6,829 bases of DNA from a virus (Duplodnaviria > Heunggongvirae > Uroviricota > Caudoviricetes), in the IMG/VR virus record IMGVR_UViG_2778261463_000018. One strand, 5' to 3'. This document shows, piece by piece, positions 1,818-5,606 of this stretch. Each line of letters starts with the position of its first letter. The first letter of the stretch is position 1. The position numbers were made by a program, and so were the translations under genes. Under the pieces are notes generated by a model that saw only the letters and a program-made list of their open reading frames with translations, was not told the origin of the DNA and searched no databases.

Positions 1818-1934
1818 ACCCATCCACTAATACAGAGATTTAACCATGAAGACTGGATATACGCCCGAACAGGGGCGGGGCTTCGTTCGGCCTTGTGAAA
1901 CTGAAAAACAACAAAATCGCGGTTTTTCAGACAT

Positions 1935-1962
1935 AAAAAAAGCGGCCCCGATAAGGAGCCGC
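1935..1962 (-). terminator. Rho-independent terminator (minus strand): GCGGCUCC-uuauc-GGGGCCGC followed by UUUUUUU
   Basis: 8-bp GC-rich stem (one G-U wobble), 5-nt loop, 7-U tract (complement of A-run 1935-1941); read directly. Confidence 0.6.
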
Positions 1963-2008
1963 CTTTCTGAACAATTAACCTACTGCGCAAAAAATGAATA
2001 TGAGCAGT
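1935..2008 (-). ncRNA. Candidate ~70-nt small RNA (promoter-to-terminator unit with no start codon)
   Basis: Bounded by an extended -10 element (TGaTATAAT, + coords 2020-2012) and an intrinsic terminator (1962-1935); the predicted transcript contains no AUG; lies immediately downstream of the terminator of the Arc-like operon, so it is an independent unit. Confidence 0.4.
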
Positions 2009-2011
2009 GGG

Positions 2012-2020
2012 ATTATATCA
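2012..2020 (-). promoter_or_regulatory. Extended -10 promoter element TGaTATAAT (minus strand) for the candidate sRNA
   Basis: Reverse complement of + strand 2011-2020 GATTATATCA reads TGATATAATC: perfect TATAAT with TG at -15/-14. No good -35, which is permissible for extended -10 promoters. Confidence 0.4.
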
Positions 2021-2058
2021 ACCGTGTGGCGAAGCGCCACAATTGCCGGATAACGGGC

Positions 2059-2086
2059 AAAGAAAAGGCCACCTGTCACGGTGGCC
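2059..2086 (-). terminator. Rho-independent terminator of the Arc-like/63-aa operon: GGCCACC-gugaca-GGUGGCC followed by UUUUCUUU
   Basis: 7-bp GC stem, 6-nt loop, U-rich tract (complement of 2059-2066), located 35 nt after the stop of the 63-aa ORF. Confidence 0.55.
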
Positions 2087-2120
2087 AATGTGATCAGTGT
2101 CCTGGCTTGCTGGTGGATTG

Positions 2121-2312
2121 TCAGCCAGGTGGGCGGTTTTTGTTTGCTTTTAAGCGCCGAGGGTATTTCTCGACAAAAGGATCAAGGGCGAACTTATCAG
2201 GAACTTTAAGATTTTCAGTACGGGTTAATGCCTTATTTATTTCCCTGCGGGTTTTCTCACGCTGGCGCATGATAATTGATAATGCTTTATTTTGTAGTTC
2301 CTGGTTATTCAT
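2121..2312 (-). CDS. Hypothetical 63-aa highly charged (K/R/E-rich) protein co-transcribed with the Arc-like repressor
   Basis: ATG at 2312 with SD AGGTGA 5 nt upstream (the track's 66-aa version starts at an upstream GTG with no SD); 57 nt downstream of the Arc-like stop; followed by an intrinsic terminator. No recognisable motif. Confidence 0.5.
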   Translation of the reverse strand: MNNQELQNKALSIIMRQREKTRREINKALTRTENLKVPDKFALDPFVEKYPRRLKANKNRPPG

Positions 2313-2369
2313 AATTATCACCTTTAAAACAATGCGCCGCAGTACCTCACACCACGGCGCTGATAGTTT

Positions 2370-2543
2370 TTATCCTTTGGGTTCTATGCCGCGTTGCTGT
2401 AATTCTTTGCGGAGAACGCGTTTAATCCAAGTGGCTAAAGATGTGTCGCCATCGGCCTTAGCTGCTTCTTCTAGCTGCGCTCTGAAGTCTTCCGGTAATC
2501 GCATTTGGTATGGAGGCGAACGTTTTTCTAATGGTGTTGACAT
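2370..2543 (-). CDS. Arc/MetJ-type ribbon-helix-helix DNA-binding protein, 57 aa (not in ORF track, below length cutoff)
   Basis: Minus-strand ORF MSTPLEKRSPPYQMRLPEDFRAQLEEAAKADGDTSLATWIKRVLRKELQQRGIEPKG: N-terminal arm, beta-strand-like YQMRLPEDF, then two helices, matching the Arc pattern (PQFNLRWPREV...helix A...RSVNSEIYQRV). SD GAAGGG; start codon abuts a palindromic operator. Confidence 0.7.
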   Translation of the reverse strand: MSTPLEKRSPPYQMRLPEDFRAQLEEAAKADGDTSLATWIKRVLRKELQQRGIEPKG

Positions 2544-2555
2544 GGTAATTACCCT
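2542..2555. promoter_or_regulatory. Operator O1: ATGGTAATTACCcT (perfect 10-bp core palindrome GGTAATTACC 2544-2553) overlapping the SD/start codon of the Arc-like gene
   Basis: Read directly; the 14-mer ACATGGTAATTACC at 2540-2553 is repeated exactly at 2570-2583. Confidence 0.55.
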
Positions 2556-2571
2556 TCATTACTATACCTAC

Positions 2572-2585
2572 ATGGTAATTACCAT
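2572..2585. promoter_or_regulatory. Operator O2: ATGGTAATTACCAT, perfect 14-bp palindrome, centre 30 bp from O1
   Basis: Exact self-reverse-complement; three helical turns from O1, suggesting cooperative binding by a dimer/tetramer of an RHH repressor. Confidence 0.55.
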
Positions 2586-2611
2586 TGTACTTGCCATTAC
2601 ACAAAAATCAA
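2584..2611 (-). promoter_or_regulatory. Candidate sigma70 promoter of the Arc-like operon (TTGATT-N16-TACAAT on minus strand)
   Basis: -35 TTGATT (+ coords 2611-2606), 16-bp spacer, -10 TACAAT (2589-2584); -10 overlaps operator O2 and the predicted start site falls inside it, as expected for autorepression. Confidence 0.35.
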
Positions 2612-2644
2612 CGCCCCGCAGTGCTGGGAACACATACGGGGCGT
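2611..2644. promoter_or_regulatory. Stem-loop ACGCCCCG-(18 nt)-CGGGGCGT between the operator/promoter region and the first plus-strand operon gene
   Basis: 8-bp GC-rich inverted repeat read directly; on the minus strand it is followed by UGAUUUUUGUG (terminator-like insulator); on the plus strand it would sit in the operon leader. Loop is large, so uncertain. Confidence 0.25.
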
Positions 2645-2673
2645 CTAACCAACAACGTAAACTAGGAGCCGTT

Positions 2674-2871
2674 ATGGTTGCCGTAAATCATATACCACAC
2701 CTTGTACACACACAAACCGCCTTTGTGTGGCGTTTTCTGGCACTGAGTGCCGGAGAATCTCAAATTATCCACGTGACCGCCTGGACAGAACGCGAAGCGC
2801 GTAACCGTTGCCCGTCCGGTTGTGTCGCTGTATTCGCCGCCCGTATTCGTCAGGAGGTGTGCCATGATTAA
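2674..2871 (+). CDS. Hypothetical protein, 65 aa (first gene of plus-strand operon)
   Basis: ATG 2674 with strong SD AGGAG 2664-2668 (5-nt spacing); stop TAA 2869-2871 overlaps the next start. It is the only supported part of the track's 341-aa ORF. Confidence 0.5.
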   Translation: MVAVNHIPHLVHTQTAFVWRFLALSAGESQIIHVTAWTEREARNRCPSGCVAVFAARIRQEVCHD

Positions 2872-3232
2872 CCTGTCACTTACCGATCTTAACCGCGTTC
2901 AGTTTCGTGAGAAATTTACCGGACAGCTACTGGTCAATGTAGAGAATGGACGCGTAGTAAGTAATTATCACCTGCCGGATGGTGCAATTGCCGGAAGCGT
3001 TGAAGCATTGCTGGAACTGGCGGAACGCGCGCGGCTGATGAAACCGTCAACGTGCCATCACGATGATGATCCGCATTTTACCGGGCGCATAGTGAGCCAT
3101 TACGAAAACGGCGTTGAGGTATCCTGCGAACAGCTACGCACTGATTGCTGTTTTGGCACTCTGCCGGAATTTATCGAATTGCTGACCAGTTGCGGATATC
3201 AGGTTATTCAGGGGGTGCGCCATGTGCAATAA
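2864..3232 (+). CDS. Hypothetical protein, 122 aa
   Basis: ATG 2864 with SD AGGAGGTG 2852-2859; the track's start at 2822 is upstream within the previous gene; stop overlaps next start (ATG...TAA at 3222-3232). Confidence 0.6.
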   Translation: MINLSLTDLNRVQFREKFTGQLLVNVENGRVVSNYHLPDGAIAGSVEALLELAERARLMKPSTCHHDDDPHFTGRIVSHYENGVEVSCEQLRTDCCFGTLPEFIELLTSCGYQVIQGVRHVQ

Positions 3233-3461
3233 CCCACGTCCGGACGCAGCCGCCGCCGCGCTCACTACGCTGATGCACGCGCTTATTGATATTTCTGTTA
3301 TTGCAGACATGGCGCATAAGCACGCCACCAGTGAAACAGAATATGCCGGGGCTTTCATTCCTCATTCGCTGGCGGTTATGCAACTTAGTGCTGATATGGC
3401 GCTGAATGAGGCCAAAGCTATCCTGATTGCTGATTGTGAAAATGGTGGGGGTTATGCGTGA
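3222..3461 (+). CDS. Hypothetical protein, 79 aa, Ala-rich
   Basis: ATG 3222 overlapping upstream stop; ends TGA 3459-3461 overlapping next start; coding-like composition; no recognisable motif. Confidence 0.5.
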   Translation: MCNNPRPDAAAAALTTLMHALIDISVIADMAHKHATSETEYAGAFIPHSLAVMQLSADMALNEAKAILIADCENGGGYA

Positions 3462-3675
3462 TGATCGTTTTAATTCCCTGAAACAGGAATTTTCCGGCGT
3501 TCCTGATAATGCGGCTGATGCGCTTTCGTCAATATCTGAAATTATGCGGGTGGCTTTTTTCTTTCTTTGCACTGATGAGCACAGGGATACAGGGCTAAAT
3601 ATTCTTGATATCGCCGCTAACTATGCTGATTTCGTAACGGAAACTGTTTTAAGAAAAACAACGGGTGGGGATTAA
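3454..3675 (+). CDS. Hypothetical protein, 73 aa
   Basis: ATG 3454 preceded by SD GGTGGGGG; the track's upstream TTG start at 3427 lacks an SD; overlaps the previous gene by 8 nt. Confidence 0.5.
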   Translation: MRDDRFNSLKQEFSGVPDNAADALSSISEIMRVAFFFLCTDEHRDTGLNILDIAANYADFVTETVLRKTTGGD

Positions 3676-3676
3676 T

Positions 3677-3910
3677 ATGCGTGATATTTACCTAGAAACA
3701 ATAGACCGCGCATTTAGTGCCATTGTTTACGCTGAAGGTATGTACGAAATATTGCAAATGTATCCAGATACATTTGGCGATAATGAGCGTGATGTAAAGA
3801 ATGCGCGGATTATTAAATCTCTGATAACTCTCCTTGAACCTGTAATAACAGAGTTGCAGGAAATAGACCTATTGCACGACAGATATAAAGAACAGCACAC
3901 CGGAGAATAA
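3677..3910 (+). CDS. Hypothetical protein, 77 aa, acidic
   Basis: ATG 3677 preceded by SD GGGTGGGG (6-nt spacing); the track's start at 3665 is a GTG inside the SD; stop TAA 3908-3910. Confidence 0.5.
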   Translation: MRDIYLETIDRAFSAIVYAEGMYEILQMYPDTFGDNERDVKNARIIKSLITLLEPVITELQEIDLLHDRYKEQHTGE

Positions 3911-3915
3911 AAATA

Positions 3916-4203
3916 ATGAAACTTAAATATTCTGGCTTAACTGCCAGTGGCAAAACTCGCACTAAATTCATGCGCGGCGATATTTACCGCGATAAGTACG
4001 GCGGCACGGTCATGATTAAGGGCGTGGAGGAACGTCGCATCACTTACCGCCGTGATGGCTACGAATATGACTGCGTGATGCCTGTTTATCAGTTCCGGCG
4101 TGATTTCACGCTGGTGGGCCATCGTAAAGCCGTTAATCAGAAACGTGCAGCAATCTATATCCGCAAAATCCGTGAAATGCTGGTCGCAGGGGGTAAAAAA
4201 TGA
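3916..4203 (+). CDS. Hypothetical basic protein, 95 aa (R/K-rich, possibly nucleic-acid binding)
   Basis: ATG 3916; stop TGA 4201-4203 overlaps the ATPase start (ATGA coupling); high Arg/Lys/Tyr content. Confidence 0.55.
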   Translation: MKLKYSGLTASGKTRTKFMRGDIYRDKYGGTVMIKGVEERRITYRRDGYEYDCVMPVYQFRRDFTLVGHRKAVNQKRAAIYIRKIREMLVAGGKK

Positions 4204-5606
4204 AACTGGCACCGAACGTAAAACTGTTACCGAAAAATAAACACACTGAGGCGGTTATTTTTGCGGGTGATAATGCTCACTCCTTTGCAGAACATTACAT
4301 GATTGCACAGGCCAAAAAAGCAGGCGATCCCATCCCTCCGGTTTACCTGGGCCGTTATCAGTTAAGCGAACTGGACAACTTACAGATTGTTGATGAAGGA
4401 CGATACAGGGCAAAGGTCATACGCGCCGGAAACCTGGACGATATGCAGATGCTGACCATTGCCACAAAACTGGCGATCGCCGGAGTCCTGGAGGCGCGGC
4501 TACTTTCTGAAAATTTCGAACTGCTGGAGGACTGGAGCGACCAGCTACCACGACTACGGGAAACATGGGAGAGAGGGGAAAGCCTGGTCATGAATGGCGG
4601 AAAGCGAAAAATCACACTTCCCATCTCATGGGGTTCTGAGGGATTCGATGCGCAGCAAAGCTACGTCATTAAGGGGCTTATTCCGGCTGAGTCATTATGC
4701 AGCACCTACGGGGCCAGCGGTTCTTATAAATCGTTCCTCGCCATTTCCTGGTCGTGCCATGTTGCCACAGGTATGGCATGGGGAGGCCGCAGGGTAAGTA
4801 AGGGTGCGGTTATCTATATCGCTGGCGAAGGCAGCATGGGCGTAAAACGCCGCGTTAAGGCGTGGGAGATAACCCACGAAAAAATGGTTACAGATTTGTG
4901 CATCATTAACGCGCCGGTATTCCCCGCATCGCCTGACTATGTGGAGCAGGTTATCAGGACTGCCGGACTTGTTAAGAGCAGAACGGGCGAAAATGTGCGG
5001 CTGATTGTGATCGACACGCTGGCCCGTTGCTTTGGTGGGAATGATGAAAATGATTCCCGTGATATGGGCGCATTTATCCAGGGGTGTGACGCGATAAAGC
5101 AGGCTACAGGGGCCACGGTGCTGGTGGTTCACCATTCCGGCAAGGATGAAACAAAGGGGGCGCGTGGTTCCAGCGCATTCCGTGCCGCGCTTGATGCAGA
5201 GTACCGAATCAGCCGGGAAAATTCAGACGTTACAGCACTGGTGGCGGCGTGTACGAAGATGAAAGACGCAGAGGAGCCAAAAGAGAGCGCATACGACCTT
5301 AAAAGCGTGGAGGTGTTTACCGATACCGATGGCGAAGAGATTGTGTCCATGGTGGTGATTGACGTTCCCCGCGCCCCTGCTGAACTGGAGCGCATAGAGG
5401 AGGCAGGCAACAAGACGGAAAACCATACCGCGCTATGGGGGTGCATCCGTTCACGCACACAGAACGGCGACAAGTGCACGATCCCGCTGTTACGTGATGA
5501 CATGAAACGGCTTGGGTATGACGTGAAAAATATGCGGCGATGGTTAGCCAAACTGGAAAAAGACGCCGTGATTTACATTGATGGTGATGATGTAGGACCA
5601 CTGTAA
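4200..5606 (+). CDS. P-loop NTPase of the RecA-like/AAA_25 (RepA/DnaB-type replicative helicase) family, 468 aa; putative island replication protein
   Basis: P-loop-like YGASGSYKS (4707-4733), Walker B-like RLIVIDTLARCF, and VLVVHHSGKD...GARGSSAF motifs characteristic of RepA/DnaB-like helicases; SD AGGGGG; immediately followed by an iteron array. Confidence 0.75.
   Translation: MKLAPNVKLLPKNKHTEAVIFAGDNAHSFAEHYMIAQAKKAGDPIPPVYLGRYQLSELDNLQIVDEGRYRAKVIRAGNLDDMQMLTIATKLAIAGVLEARLLSENFELLEDWSDQLPRLRETWERGESLVMNGGKRKITLPISWGSEGFDAQQSYVIKGLIPAESLCSTYGASGSYKSFLAISWSCHVATGMAWGGRRVSKGAVIYIAGEGSMGVKRRVKAWEITHEKMVTDLCIINAPVFPASPDYVEQVIRTAGLVKSRTGENVRLIVIDTLARCFGGNDENDSRDMGAFIQGCDAIKQATGATVLVVHHSGKDETKGARGSSAFRAALDAEYRISRENSDVTALVAACTKMKDAEEPKESAYDLKSVEVFTDTDGEEIVSMVVIDVPRAPAELERIEEAGNKTENHTALWGCIRSRTQNGDKCTIPLLRDDMKRLGYDVKNMRRWLAKLEKDAVIYIDGDDVGPL

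Follow-up and report, generated by a model that had tools for sequence, protein, structure and literature searches.

Six chained small genes ahead of the replicase of an EcCICFT073-type phage-inducible chromosomal island: a probable promoter-proximal part of its early operon

Six overlapping small genes precede the replicase

The DNA analysed here, called the window throughout, is the whole 6,829-nucleotide (nt) stretch of IMG/VR virus record IMGVR_UViG_2778261463_000018. Judged from its sequence, it is the left half of a phage-inducible chromosomal island (PICI) of the EcCICFT073 type with a RepA-type replicase allele. Positions 2674-4203 of the plus strand, flanked by a divergent repressor switch on one side and by the replicase gene on the other, hold a chain of six open reading frames (ORFs) of 65-122 amino acids (aa). 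With a probability of roughly 0.6, we take these ORFs to be the promoter-proximal part of the island's early (replication) operon, with a switch made of two gates included in that reading.

The first gene of the chain, O1 (2674-2871, 65 aa), is Icd-like. It is followed by four genes for acidic proteins, O2 (2864-3232, 122 aa, isoelectric point (pI) 5.4), O3 (3222-3461, 79 aa, pI 4.8, predicted to form a helical hairpin), O4 (3454-3675, 73 aa, pI 4.5) and O5 (3677-3910, 77 aa, pI 4.6), and the last gene, O6 (3916-4203, 95 aa), encodes a very basic protein (pI 10.3), an orthologue of RgdR belonging to the DUF4222 family. All six lie on the plus strand. The first three junctions are overlaps, namely ATGATTAA between O1 and O2 (-8), ATGTGCAATAA between O2 and O3 (-11) and ATGCGTGA between O3 and O4 (-8), and the following two are short gaps, TAAtATG between O4 and O5 (+1) and TAAaaataATG between O5 and O6 (+5). 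O6 enters the replicase gene through an ATGA overlap (-4, at 4200). A preliminary description of this DNA had given the same coordinates, the same overlapping stop and start codons and the same location between the divergent repressor switch and the replicase, and all of this was confirmed.

Each of the six ORFs matches a PHROG family (E between 1e-27 and 1e-42), and the pairwise ratios of nonsynonymous to synonymous substitution rates (dN/dS) measured against orthologues in other islands range from 0.05 to 0.56, as compared to 0.16-0.24 for the adjacent replicase. Because of these matches and ratios, the six ORFs are genuine genes under purifying selection and not chance ORFs.

The control region carries a candidate repressor, its presumed operators and a predicted antisense RNA

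A rightward promoter (TTGACA, 17 nt, TACTAT; 2537-2565, plus strand), which scored 10/12 in the promoter scan, lies ahead of O1. It is overlapped by two copies of ACATGGTAATTACC, at 2540-2553 and 2570-2583, with the palindromic core GGTAATTACC, which are presumed operators. Among 12 aligned islands the -35 element TTGAC is kept in ten (TTGAA in the other two), and the repeats differ from island to island.

Divergently from the six-ORF operon, on the minus strand (2370-2543), a protein of 57 aa is encoded that is a candidate ribbon-helix-helix (RHH) repressor of the YlcI/YnfO or Arc-like kind. Its matches are to the NCBIfam model YlcI_YnfO_N (1.4e-3, 18.7 bits, under the 30-bit cut-off), to Pfam Arc (0.038) and to PHROG 228, 'Arc-like repressor' (1.5e-6). 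The RHH alleles vary between islands and each is accompanied by its own operator repeats, GGTAATTACC in the window and GTGGGCCACA in CFT073, which suggests that the repressor/operator pairs represent distinct PICI immunity types. To our knowledge, no repressor has been established for PICIs.

A gene for a cis-antisense RNA of about 80 nt was predicted on the minus strand at 2598-2692, over the start codon and the Shine-Dalgarno (SD) sequence of O1. Its parts, all read on the minus strand, are a -10 box TATGAT (2692 to 2687), a terminator hairpin (2644 to 2611) and a T-rich tail (2610 to 2600), and its 5' region is complementary to the O1 start codon, to the SD sequence and to an invariant 14-nt motif of the leader (2645-2658). 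The hairpin and the invariant TCTAACCAnCAACG are found 30 nt upstream of the O1 ATG. When 17 distinct variants of the hairpin (of 29 found) were aligned, compensatory changes were present at 8 of the 12 pairs and 88% of the cells were paired; none of 500 shuffles reached the observed level, and the slid controls collapsed.

The two strands of this hairpin do not fold equally well. In 13 of 15 variants the minus strand is the more stable one (-22 to -27 kcal/mol vs. -13 to -19 kcal/mol for the plus strand), because A.C mismatches of the plus strand become G.U pairs in the minus strand. A functional hairpin in the plus-strand leader was considered and rejected, since the minus strand folds far better and is the one that bears the T-tail. 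The sequence TATRAT (minus strand, opposite codons 4-6 of O1) is present in 55 of 55 unique variants, in 31 of them as TGnTATRAT, and it is kept in both groups of O1 alleles despite their differing N-termini. As a whole, the 84-nt antisense sequence folds at -33.6 kcal/mol (z = -3.8). Taken together, the covarying hairpin, the stability of its minus strand, the T-rich tail and the conserved TATRAT predict a conserved antisense RNA, encoded in cis and some 80 nt long, running from about 2680 to 2600, that covers the start codon and the SD sequence of O1.

An Rfam scan of both strands of the leader returned no family, the best matches being at chance level (CRISPR-DR32, E 0.98; isrD, E 0.99). 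The C4, c4-a1b1 and isrK models found nothing in the window at E<=1, nor in 2560-2700 at E<=10, and all three were found in P4. The sar RNA family was likewise not found by the Rfam scan.

The window is the left half of an EcCICFT073-type island

Upstream of the control region, the window encodes a tyrosine integrase (1-1230), an AlpA-family regulator (1605-1793; PF05930, 5e-18) and, on the minus strand 3' of the RHH gene, a basic 66-aa ORF (2121-2321, pI 10.7). The replicase downstream of O6 (4200-5606, plus strand, 468 aa) is a RepA-type helicase (AAA_25, PF13481, 1.6e-42); 3' of it there are two further small ORFs and the start of the SSB (single-stranded DNA-binding protein) gene, inside which the window ends. 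The order integrase, AlpA and early operon with its own replicase, in one orientation, is that by which Gram-negative PICIs of the EcCICFT073 type, which occupy a dedicated att site, are recognised.

In EcCICFT073 and in OI-51/Sp7 of O157 Sakai the integrase and AlpA are about 94% identical to those of the window and the gene order is the same, and it is on this identity and order that the assignment to the EcCICFT073 type is based. The order in CFT073 is int, alpA, two minus-strand genes, an Icd-like gene, four small ORFs, DUF4222, replicase, SSB and PerC. The satellite or PICI setting proposed in the preliminary description was thus correct. Induction by a helper phage and packaging have been demonstrated experimentally for EcCICFT073 only. 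As regards a P4-like satellite, O2-O5 gave no match to the Derepression family, the window contains no C4 RNA, and the replicase is of the RepA type.

Islands of this kind are common. With the window as a megablast query, related DNA was found in 1914 of 5426 complete E. coli genomes, and the six-ORF region itself was matched at the DNA level in 1535 of them. For this reason, and because EcCICFT073 has the same layout, the chain is not unique to the window. PICIs of this type measure about 10-15 kb and lack tail and lysis genes. The island of strain AR_0085 (94.5% identity, the alignment taking in 92% of the window) has a length of about 10.7 kb and lies between allE and allC; beyond the part equivalent to the window it contains PerC and then capsid, decoration and connector genes only.

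The 66-aa minus-strand ORF at 2121-2321 is 98% identical in AR_0085 and belongs to no family; a strong terminator-like hairpin follows at its 3' side (2086-2067), and its sole match, to the HNH model of ZorE, is weak (E 0.004) and probably due to chance.

The ends of the chain are fixed and its middle is variable

The chain was compared in two sets, 14 annotated islands and 97 loci (from IMG/VR and E. coli) recovered through the O3/O4 junction motif, the latter being biased to islands that carry O3 and O4. In both sets an Icd-like gene leads every complete chain and DUF4222 is always last. The Icd-like gene is first in 14/14 annotated islands and in 96 of the 97 loci, the exception being a 533-bp fragment. 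Whether the replicase is of the RepA, primase or DUF927 type, the DUF4222 gene overlaps it by ATGA in all 14 annotated islands.

The genes between these two ends vary in number (from 1 to 5), in family and in order, and the junction offsets recur throughout. For example, an O2-type gene stands between the O3-type and O4-type genes in islands L007 (3002-3798) and L010 (3226-4037). Variability of the gene set between otherwise conserved islands, which had been put forward as a check for hotspot behaviour, was therefore found, limited to the middle of a fixed frame. We also noted that the junction sequences (..CATGnnTRA) recur at all boundaries, as if exchange happened at the overlaps.

EcCICFT073 and OI-51/Sp7 (EcCIEDL933) likewise have an Icd-like gene, overlapping small ORFs, DUF4222 (RgdR/C1493) and a replicase entered through ATGA. 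CFT073 carries orthologues of O3, O4, O5 and O6 at 54-76% identity; its second gene, however, is a 76-aa gene where the window has a duplicated O2 module, its replicase is of the primase type (Pri-Rep) and not a RepA-type helicase, and its repressor and operator allele is a different one. The O1 allele of the window is of the Sakai type (97% identity) and not of the CFT073 type (46%).

O1 resembles the Kil part of P4 Eta

The preliminary description found no assignable motif in any of the six ORFs, which was wrong for two of them, O1 and O6. Residues 17-60 of O1 match the Icd-like model NF033153 with 64.8 bits (cut-off 25; E 5.2e-18), and the protein also matches PHROG 1743 and 29966. Its dN/dS values are 0.05-0.28. 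A search of PDB sequences returned nothing for O1.

Of the ORFs behind the promoter O1 comes first, and it shares 8 nt with O2. In P4, the ORF at the eta/kil position (in the old annotation 'cI, 137 aa') carries the Icd-like domain in its C-terminal part (73.9 bits, 7.8e-21), and PHROG 1743 is matched by both this ORF and O1. Kil is a truncated Eta that kills cells, and the translation of eta prevents termination (Mageeney et al., PMC10111431). Considering that the domain is shared with the C-terminal part of the P4 ORF, that Kil is a truncated form and that O1 has its own AGGAG, O1 is, on sequence grounds, a Kil-like short form homologous to the Kil part of Eta, and likely a growth or cell-division inhibitor made on induction.

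The frame of O1 is open upstream as far as 1846, giving a frame of 341 codons (1846-2871, plus strand) that starts just after alpA and lies opposite the two minus-strand genes, in antisense. That this frame encodes an Eta-like protein extended at its N-terminus was considered and rejected, since the 276-aa extension has no family match; the ORFs of 247-248 aa at the equivalent position in Sakai and 2012C-4502 likewise gave no family match. In relatives, the Prokaryotic Genome Annotation Pipeline (PGAP) gives this stretch various labels, either that of a partial pseudogene ('Icd-like' or 'ash family') or that of a hypothetical protein of 247 aa.

Inside O1, 35 nt from its start (2709-2739, plus strand), a hairpin CACACAAAC...GTTTGTGTG followed by GCGTTTTCTG resembles an intrinsic terminator, which could form only while O1 is untranslated. 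O1 alleles of the CFT073 type have a GC-rich hairpin at the same site, without the T-run.

A single record of the phage collection contains an O1 homologue. This record, L106 (LR881103.1, 'Escherichia phage vB_KppS-Ant', 16.5 kb, 'induced prophage'), has genes for an integrase, a primase, capsid, portal and terminase, besides small ORFs; one ORF is annotated as tape measure, and there are no other tail genes. It resembles a capsid-forming PICI deposited as a phage.

O2-O5 are small acidic proteins of variable occurrence

O2 consists of a unit of about 45 aa, 'FTGxxLV..NG.V', duplicated in tandem (internal repeat z = 7.2). Its PHROG matches are 340 and 2512, neither of which has a known function, and its dN/dS is 0.16-0.30. 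The module is found in 6 of the 14 islands, and single-unit versions of 70 aa occur. A similarity to designed armadillo repeats in the PDB search was discarded as an artefact, a single 29-residue stretch having been summed over the repeats, none of which was significant alone.

O3 and O4 correspond to the N-terminal and the C-terminal half of phrog_2512, respectively. O3 matches PHROG 5146 at 3e-31 and 2512 at 4e-30 (dN/dS 0.17-0.55), and O4 matches PHROG 24341 at 6e-42 and 2512 at 5e-29 (dN/dS 0.14-0.29). The two are fused in islands L001 and L006 and separate in CFT073. O5 matches PHROG 2196, of unknown function, at 3.5e-30 (dN/dS 0.24-0.37); it is present in 12 of the 14 islands, immediately upstream of DUF4222, with a gap of +5 nt in 11 of them (the window included) and of +17 in L015.

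The junction of O3 and O4 contains an interrupted G-tract, GGTGGGGG (3444-3451, plus strand). In relatives, a pure run of G7-G11 (or an interrupted one of G12 length) decides whether O3 and O4 form one frame or two overlapping ORFs, and the variants cover all three frames. Among the 97 loci the tract lengths were G7 in 25, G8 in 43, G9 in 19, G10 in 4, G11 in 3 and G12 in 3, part of which sequencing error may explain. In 29 loci (G7 or G10) O3 and O4 are in one frame, and both of the G7 loci that were translated gave a single ORF of 150-154 aa. Protein clusters with GG, GGG and GGGG linkers at this junction were also found, and one split copy is called 'frameshifted' in PGAP. Among relatives the junction is a candidate phase-variable homopolymer locus, a kind recognised by an uninterrupted tract that shifts the frame through length differences between copies. 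In the window the split state is fixed, because a T interrupts the tract.

No match of O2-O5 to a replication family was found in the Pfam, NCBIfam and PHROG scans, and in Pfam the only match was one at chance level between O3 and Replic_Relax (E 0.23). In PADLOC-DB 2.0, neither O1, O2, O3, O5 and O6 nor the replicase had a match at E<=0.1, and the match of O4 to a Type II methyltransferase model (E 0.025) is at chance level. No convincing defence model was thus matched by any of the six. Judging from their position, from the analogy with P4 epsilon and the ECOR61 block discussed below, and from their mosaic variation, the exchangeable small acidic proteins O2-O5 most probably act on helper-phage or host proteins.

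O6 is the constant neighbour of the replicase

O6 matches DUF4222 (PF13973) with 86.8 bits (gathering threshold 27; E 7e-25). It is 71% identical to ECs1581 (RgdR) over the full length and 76% identical to C1493. Residues 19-26, M-R-G-D-I-Y-R-D, are identical in Sakai ECs1581, so that O6 and RgdR have in common the RGD at 20-22 and the position directly upstream of the replicase; the C-terminal tail of O6, by contrast, is 4 aa shorter and divergent. The core of O6/RgdR is predicted to be an SH3/Tudor-like barrel plus a C-terminal helix, and its closest folds include Tudor domains appended to helicases. The search of PDB sequences gave a chance match only (E 0.38), and O6 had no match in deposited phage genomes. 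A scan of the genome collection with patterns derived from the DUF4222 alignment, which were too strict, recovered 2 loci only.

RgdR is an activator of LEE1 and type III secretion and a repressor of motility, and its DNA binding is non-specific; its RGD is required for activity, and the R20C variant is inactive (PMC3378721, PMC10877973). The LEE1 and motility phenotypes have been published for ECs1581 and C1493 only, and deletion of OI-51 reduced the colonisation of sheep. This activity of RgdR and the colonisation defect, together with the PerC-family regulators that occur in the same islands, would fit a chain made of 'moron'-type cargo, that is, virulence or motility regulators that reprogramme the host and have no role in the life cycle of the satellite. 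The genes are, however, within a repressed early operon ahead of the replicase and not in accessory regions, and DUF4222 also occurs in islands of commensal and LEE-negative strains. The fixed order of the first and last genes and the coupling to the replicase favour a role within the island, and we regard the cargo explanation as very improbable.

For no member of the DUF4222 family has a native role in the island been described. Within the island, the comparison indicates that, whatever the type of the replicase, O6 is its fixed partner. Residues 1-122 of the replicase (4200-4570) show about 45% identity with the primase-type replicases of Sakai Sp7 and CFT073 at their N-termini, these being the two types that were compared directly; in the clustering, the DUF927-type replicase falls together with the RepA- and primase-type ones. 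This shared N-terminal domain of about 120-125 aa has no Pfam family match and always comes directly after the DUF4222 gene.

These data could be explained if the small proteins were accessory subunits of replication, acting in origin binding, helicase loading or the recruitment of host factors, which would account for their co-translation with the replicase. The ATGA overlap that is constant whatever the replicase type, the N-terminal domain of about 125 aa common to the three types, the basic nature of O6, the DNA binding of its orthologue and its similarity to helicase-appended domains, as well as the SSB gene downstream in the same operon, are all in keeping with this possibility. On the other hand, a role of this kind suits DUF4222 but not the middle genes, since islands with near-identical replicases differ in how many of these they have, in their families and in their order, which is unexpected for obligate subunits; the O1 family is linked to growth inhibition and not to replication; RgdR expressed alone affects host promoters; and O2-O5 match no replication family. 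We therefore consider it quite unlikely that replication is what the block as a whole serves in this way.

Comparison with known switches and with the ECOR61 block

The nearest comparison outside PICIs is the left (early) operon of P4, which consists of eta/kil, epsilon, orf151, orf106 and alpha. In P4, too, the operon follows an AlpA/Vis homologue, its first ORF is Icd-like, the next small ORFs (epsilon, orf151) are joined by 8-nt overlaps and the last gene encodes a primase/helicase. P4 epsilon, at the position equivalent to the small ORFs of the window, acts on the repressor of the helper and derepresses the helper prophage. The control, however, is different: P4 uses a processed CI RNA of the C4 family and its targets, which Rfam detected in P4 and not here, and it has no divergent RHH repressor. 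At the protein level, two candidate relationships were rejected. A 22-residue BLAST match between the O3 family and P4 epsilon was not upheld by hhalign (probability 0.7%), and DUF4222 and P4 orf151 gave an hhalign probability of 6.7%; P4 epsilon itself matches the Derepression family at 9e-51.

In the immI region of P1 (c4-icd-ant), a first gene of the Icd family is chained to the following genes and its start site is the target of a small RNA. The immI region of P22 (mnt / arc-ant, sar RNA) has RHH repressors at divergent overlapping promoters, and sar is a short antisense RNA that extends from the first codons of its target gene to a leader hairpin. By analogy, the switching logic of the window resembles that of P1 c4-icd-ant and of P4 CI-eta/kil-epsilon-alpha, and its layout resembles that of P22 sar; unlike P1 and P22, the RNA of the window is cis-encoded and predicted, and the downstream genes are not homologues of antirepressors.

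A precedent for sensing or interference with phage, as suggested in the preliminary description, comes from experiments on the ECOR61 block. There, expression of the phage accessory gene orf24 triggers cell death, suppressor insertions hit an Icd-like gene as well as two neighbouring genes, 186 and 192 nt long (overlaps -8 and -1), and all 6 linked genes, the primase included, were needed to reconstitute the effect (Silas et al. preprint). By coordinates only, this geometry is that of the Icd-like, 61-aa and 63-aa genes of Sakai Sp7.

It could be argued from this result that the block and its replicase are chiefly a device for abortive infection or superinfection exclusion, in which the small proteins sense a phage protein and release the Icd-like effector, so that the cell stops. 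The death triggered by orf24 and the position of the suppressors are what such a device would give, the lengths and overlaps of the ECOR61 genes match the Icd-like / 61-aa / 63-aa layout of both Sakai Sp7 and L015, and the variation of the middle genes is of the kind expected of sensors engaged in an arms race. The equivalence with ECOR61 is nevertheless drawn from coordinates and not from sequence. The small-gene families of ECOR61 (H and G in our clustering) are absent from the window; beyond the Icd-like gene, and presumably DUF4222 together with the replicase, nothing is shared. PADLOC gave no convincing match to any protein. Moreover, the reconstituted effect was described as 'muted', and death may be a by-product of derepression and runaway replication, given that uncontrolled replication of EcCICFT073 lowers viability. 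For these reasons we hold that defence is a possible, though rather unlikely, main function of the chain.

A two-gate model of the early operon

According to the reading that we prefer, the early operon begins, from its promoter, with the six ORFs. Transcription would start at the strong rightward promoter at 2537-2565, and the divergent RHH repressor probably shuts this promoter, since the two operator repeats overlap it. The second gate would be the predicted cis-antisense RNA at the translation start of O1. Since neighbouring ORFs overlap or abut throughout and the last one leads into the replicase by ATGA, a block of O1 translation could silence the entire chain, through lost coupling or polarity, and the overlaps would relay the on/off decision from gene to gene as far as the replicase. 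Once the island is induced, the cell would be arrested by the Kil-like O1; RgdR (O6) would work together with the replicase and also on transcription, and O2-O5 would act on helper or host proteins. The reality of the genes, their families, the conserved arrangement and the covariation of the RNA have been shown, and repression, gating by antisense, coupling, toxicity of O1 and the roles of O2-O5 are proposals.

Several observations weigh against this model. As to coupling, each ORF had been described as having its own SD sequence. This was true of O1 (AGGAG) and O2 (AGGAGGT), both canonical and at 5-nt spacing, and of O6, with GGAG at 10 nt, but not of O3, O4 and O5, which, like the replicase, have G-runs only instead of canonical SD sequences. 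As to the first gate, the published master regulator of these PICIs is AlpA and not a repressor. As to the second, the promoter of the antisense RNA in the window consists of a -10 box (TATGAT) only, with a weak -35, and, as no C4, isrK or sar family is present, the antisense gate is a new prediction. The link of O1 to Icd comes from profiles, because tblastn of O1 found no deposited P1 sequence and its sole match in the phage collection was the 16.5-kb satellite-like record mentioned above. The fold similarity of O6 is at the generic level of SH3 barrels (Foldseek best E 0.02). Finally, a complex of O3 and O4 gains no support from the AF2 model of a natural O3-O4 fusion, which was all-helical and too poor for a fold search or for judging packing (predicted local distance difference test 54, predicted template modelling score 0.39).

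A more elaborate version of the two-gate model would make the chain a phage-sensing licensing module. The chain would be kept silent by the antisense RNA, of a sort not described before, over the start site of the Kil/Icd-like toxin, O2-O5 would bind proteins of helper or competitor phages and so decide between replication and spread on the one hand and cell arrest on the other, and the Tudor-like barrel of RgdR would link the replicase to RNA polymerase. If this were true, the allele mosaic would encode the helper range of each island. We put it forward as a speculation whose chances are low.

Significance for Gram-negative PICIs

With this chain a new allele joins a system of known kind, two of the six genes being members of named families. 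Three features may be new, namely the predicted antisense RNA, the G-tract of variable length between O3 and O4 and the predicted Tudor-like fold of RgdR. The locus bears on how Gram-negative PICIs stay silent and sense helper phage, since it lays out a control region with an allele-specific repressor/operator pair, a predicted antisense RNA and a Kil-like first gene chained to the replicase. Within this fixed frame the variable part is that of the middle genes, which are the expected seat of helper specificity or interference. RgdR, so far known only as a virulence regulator, is thereby given its native context, that of a gene constantly paired with a satellite replicase.

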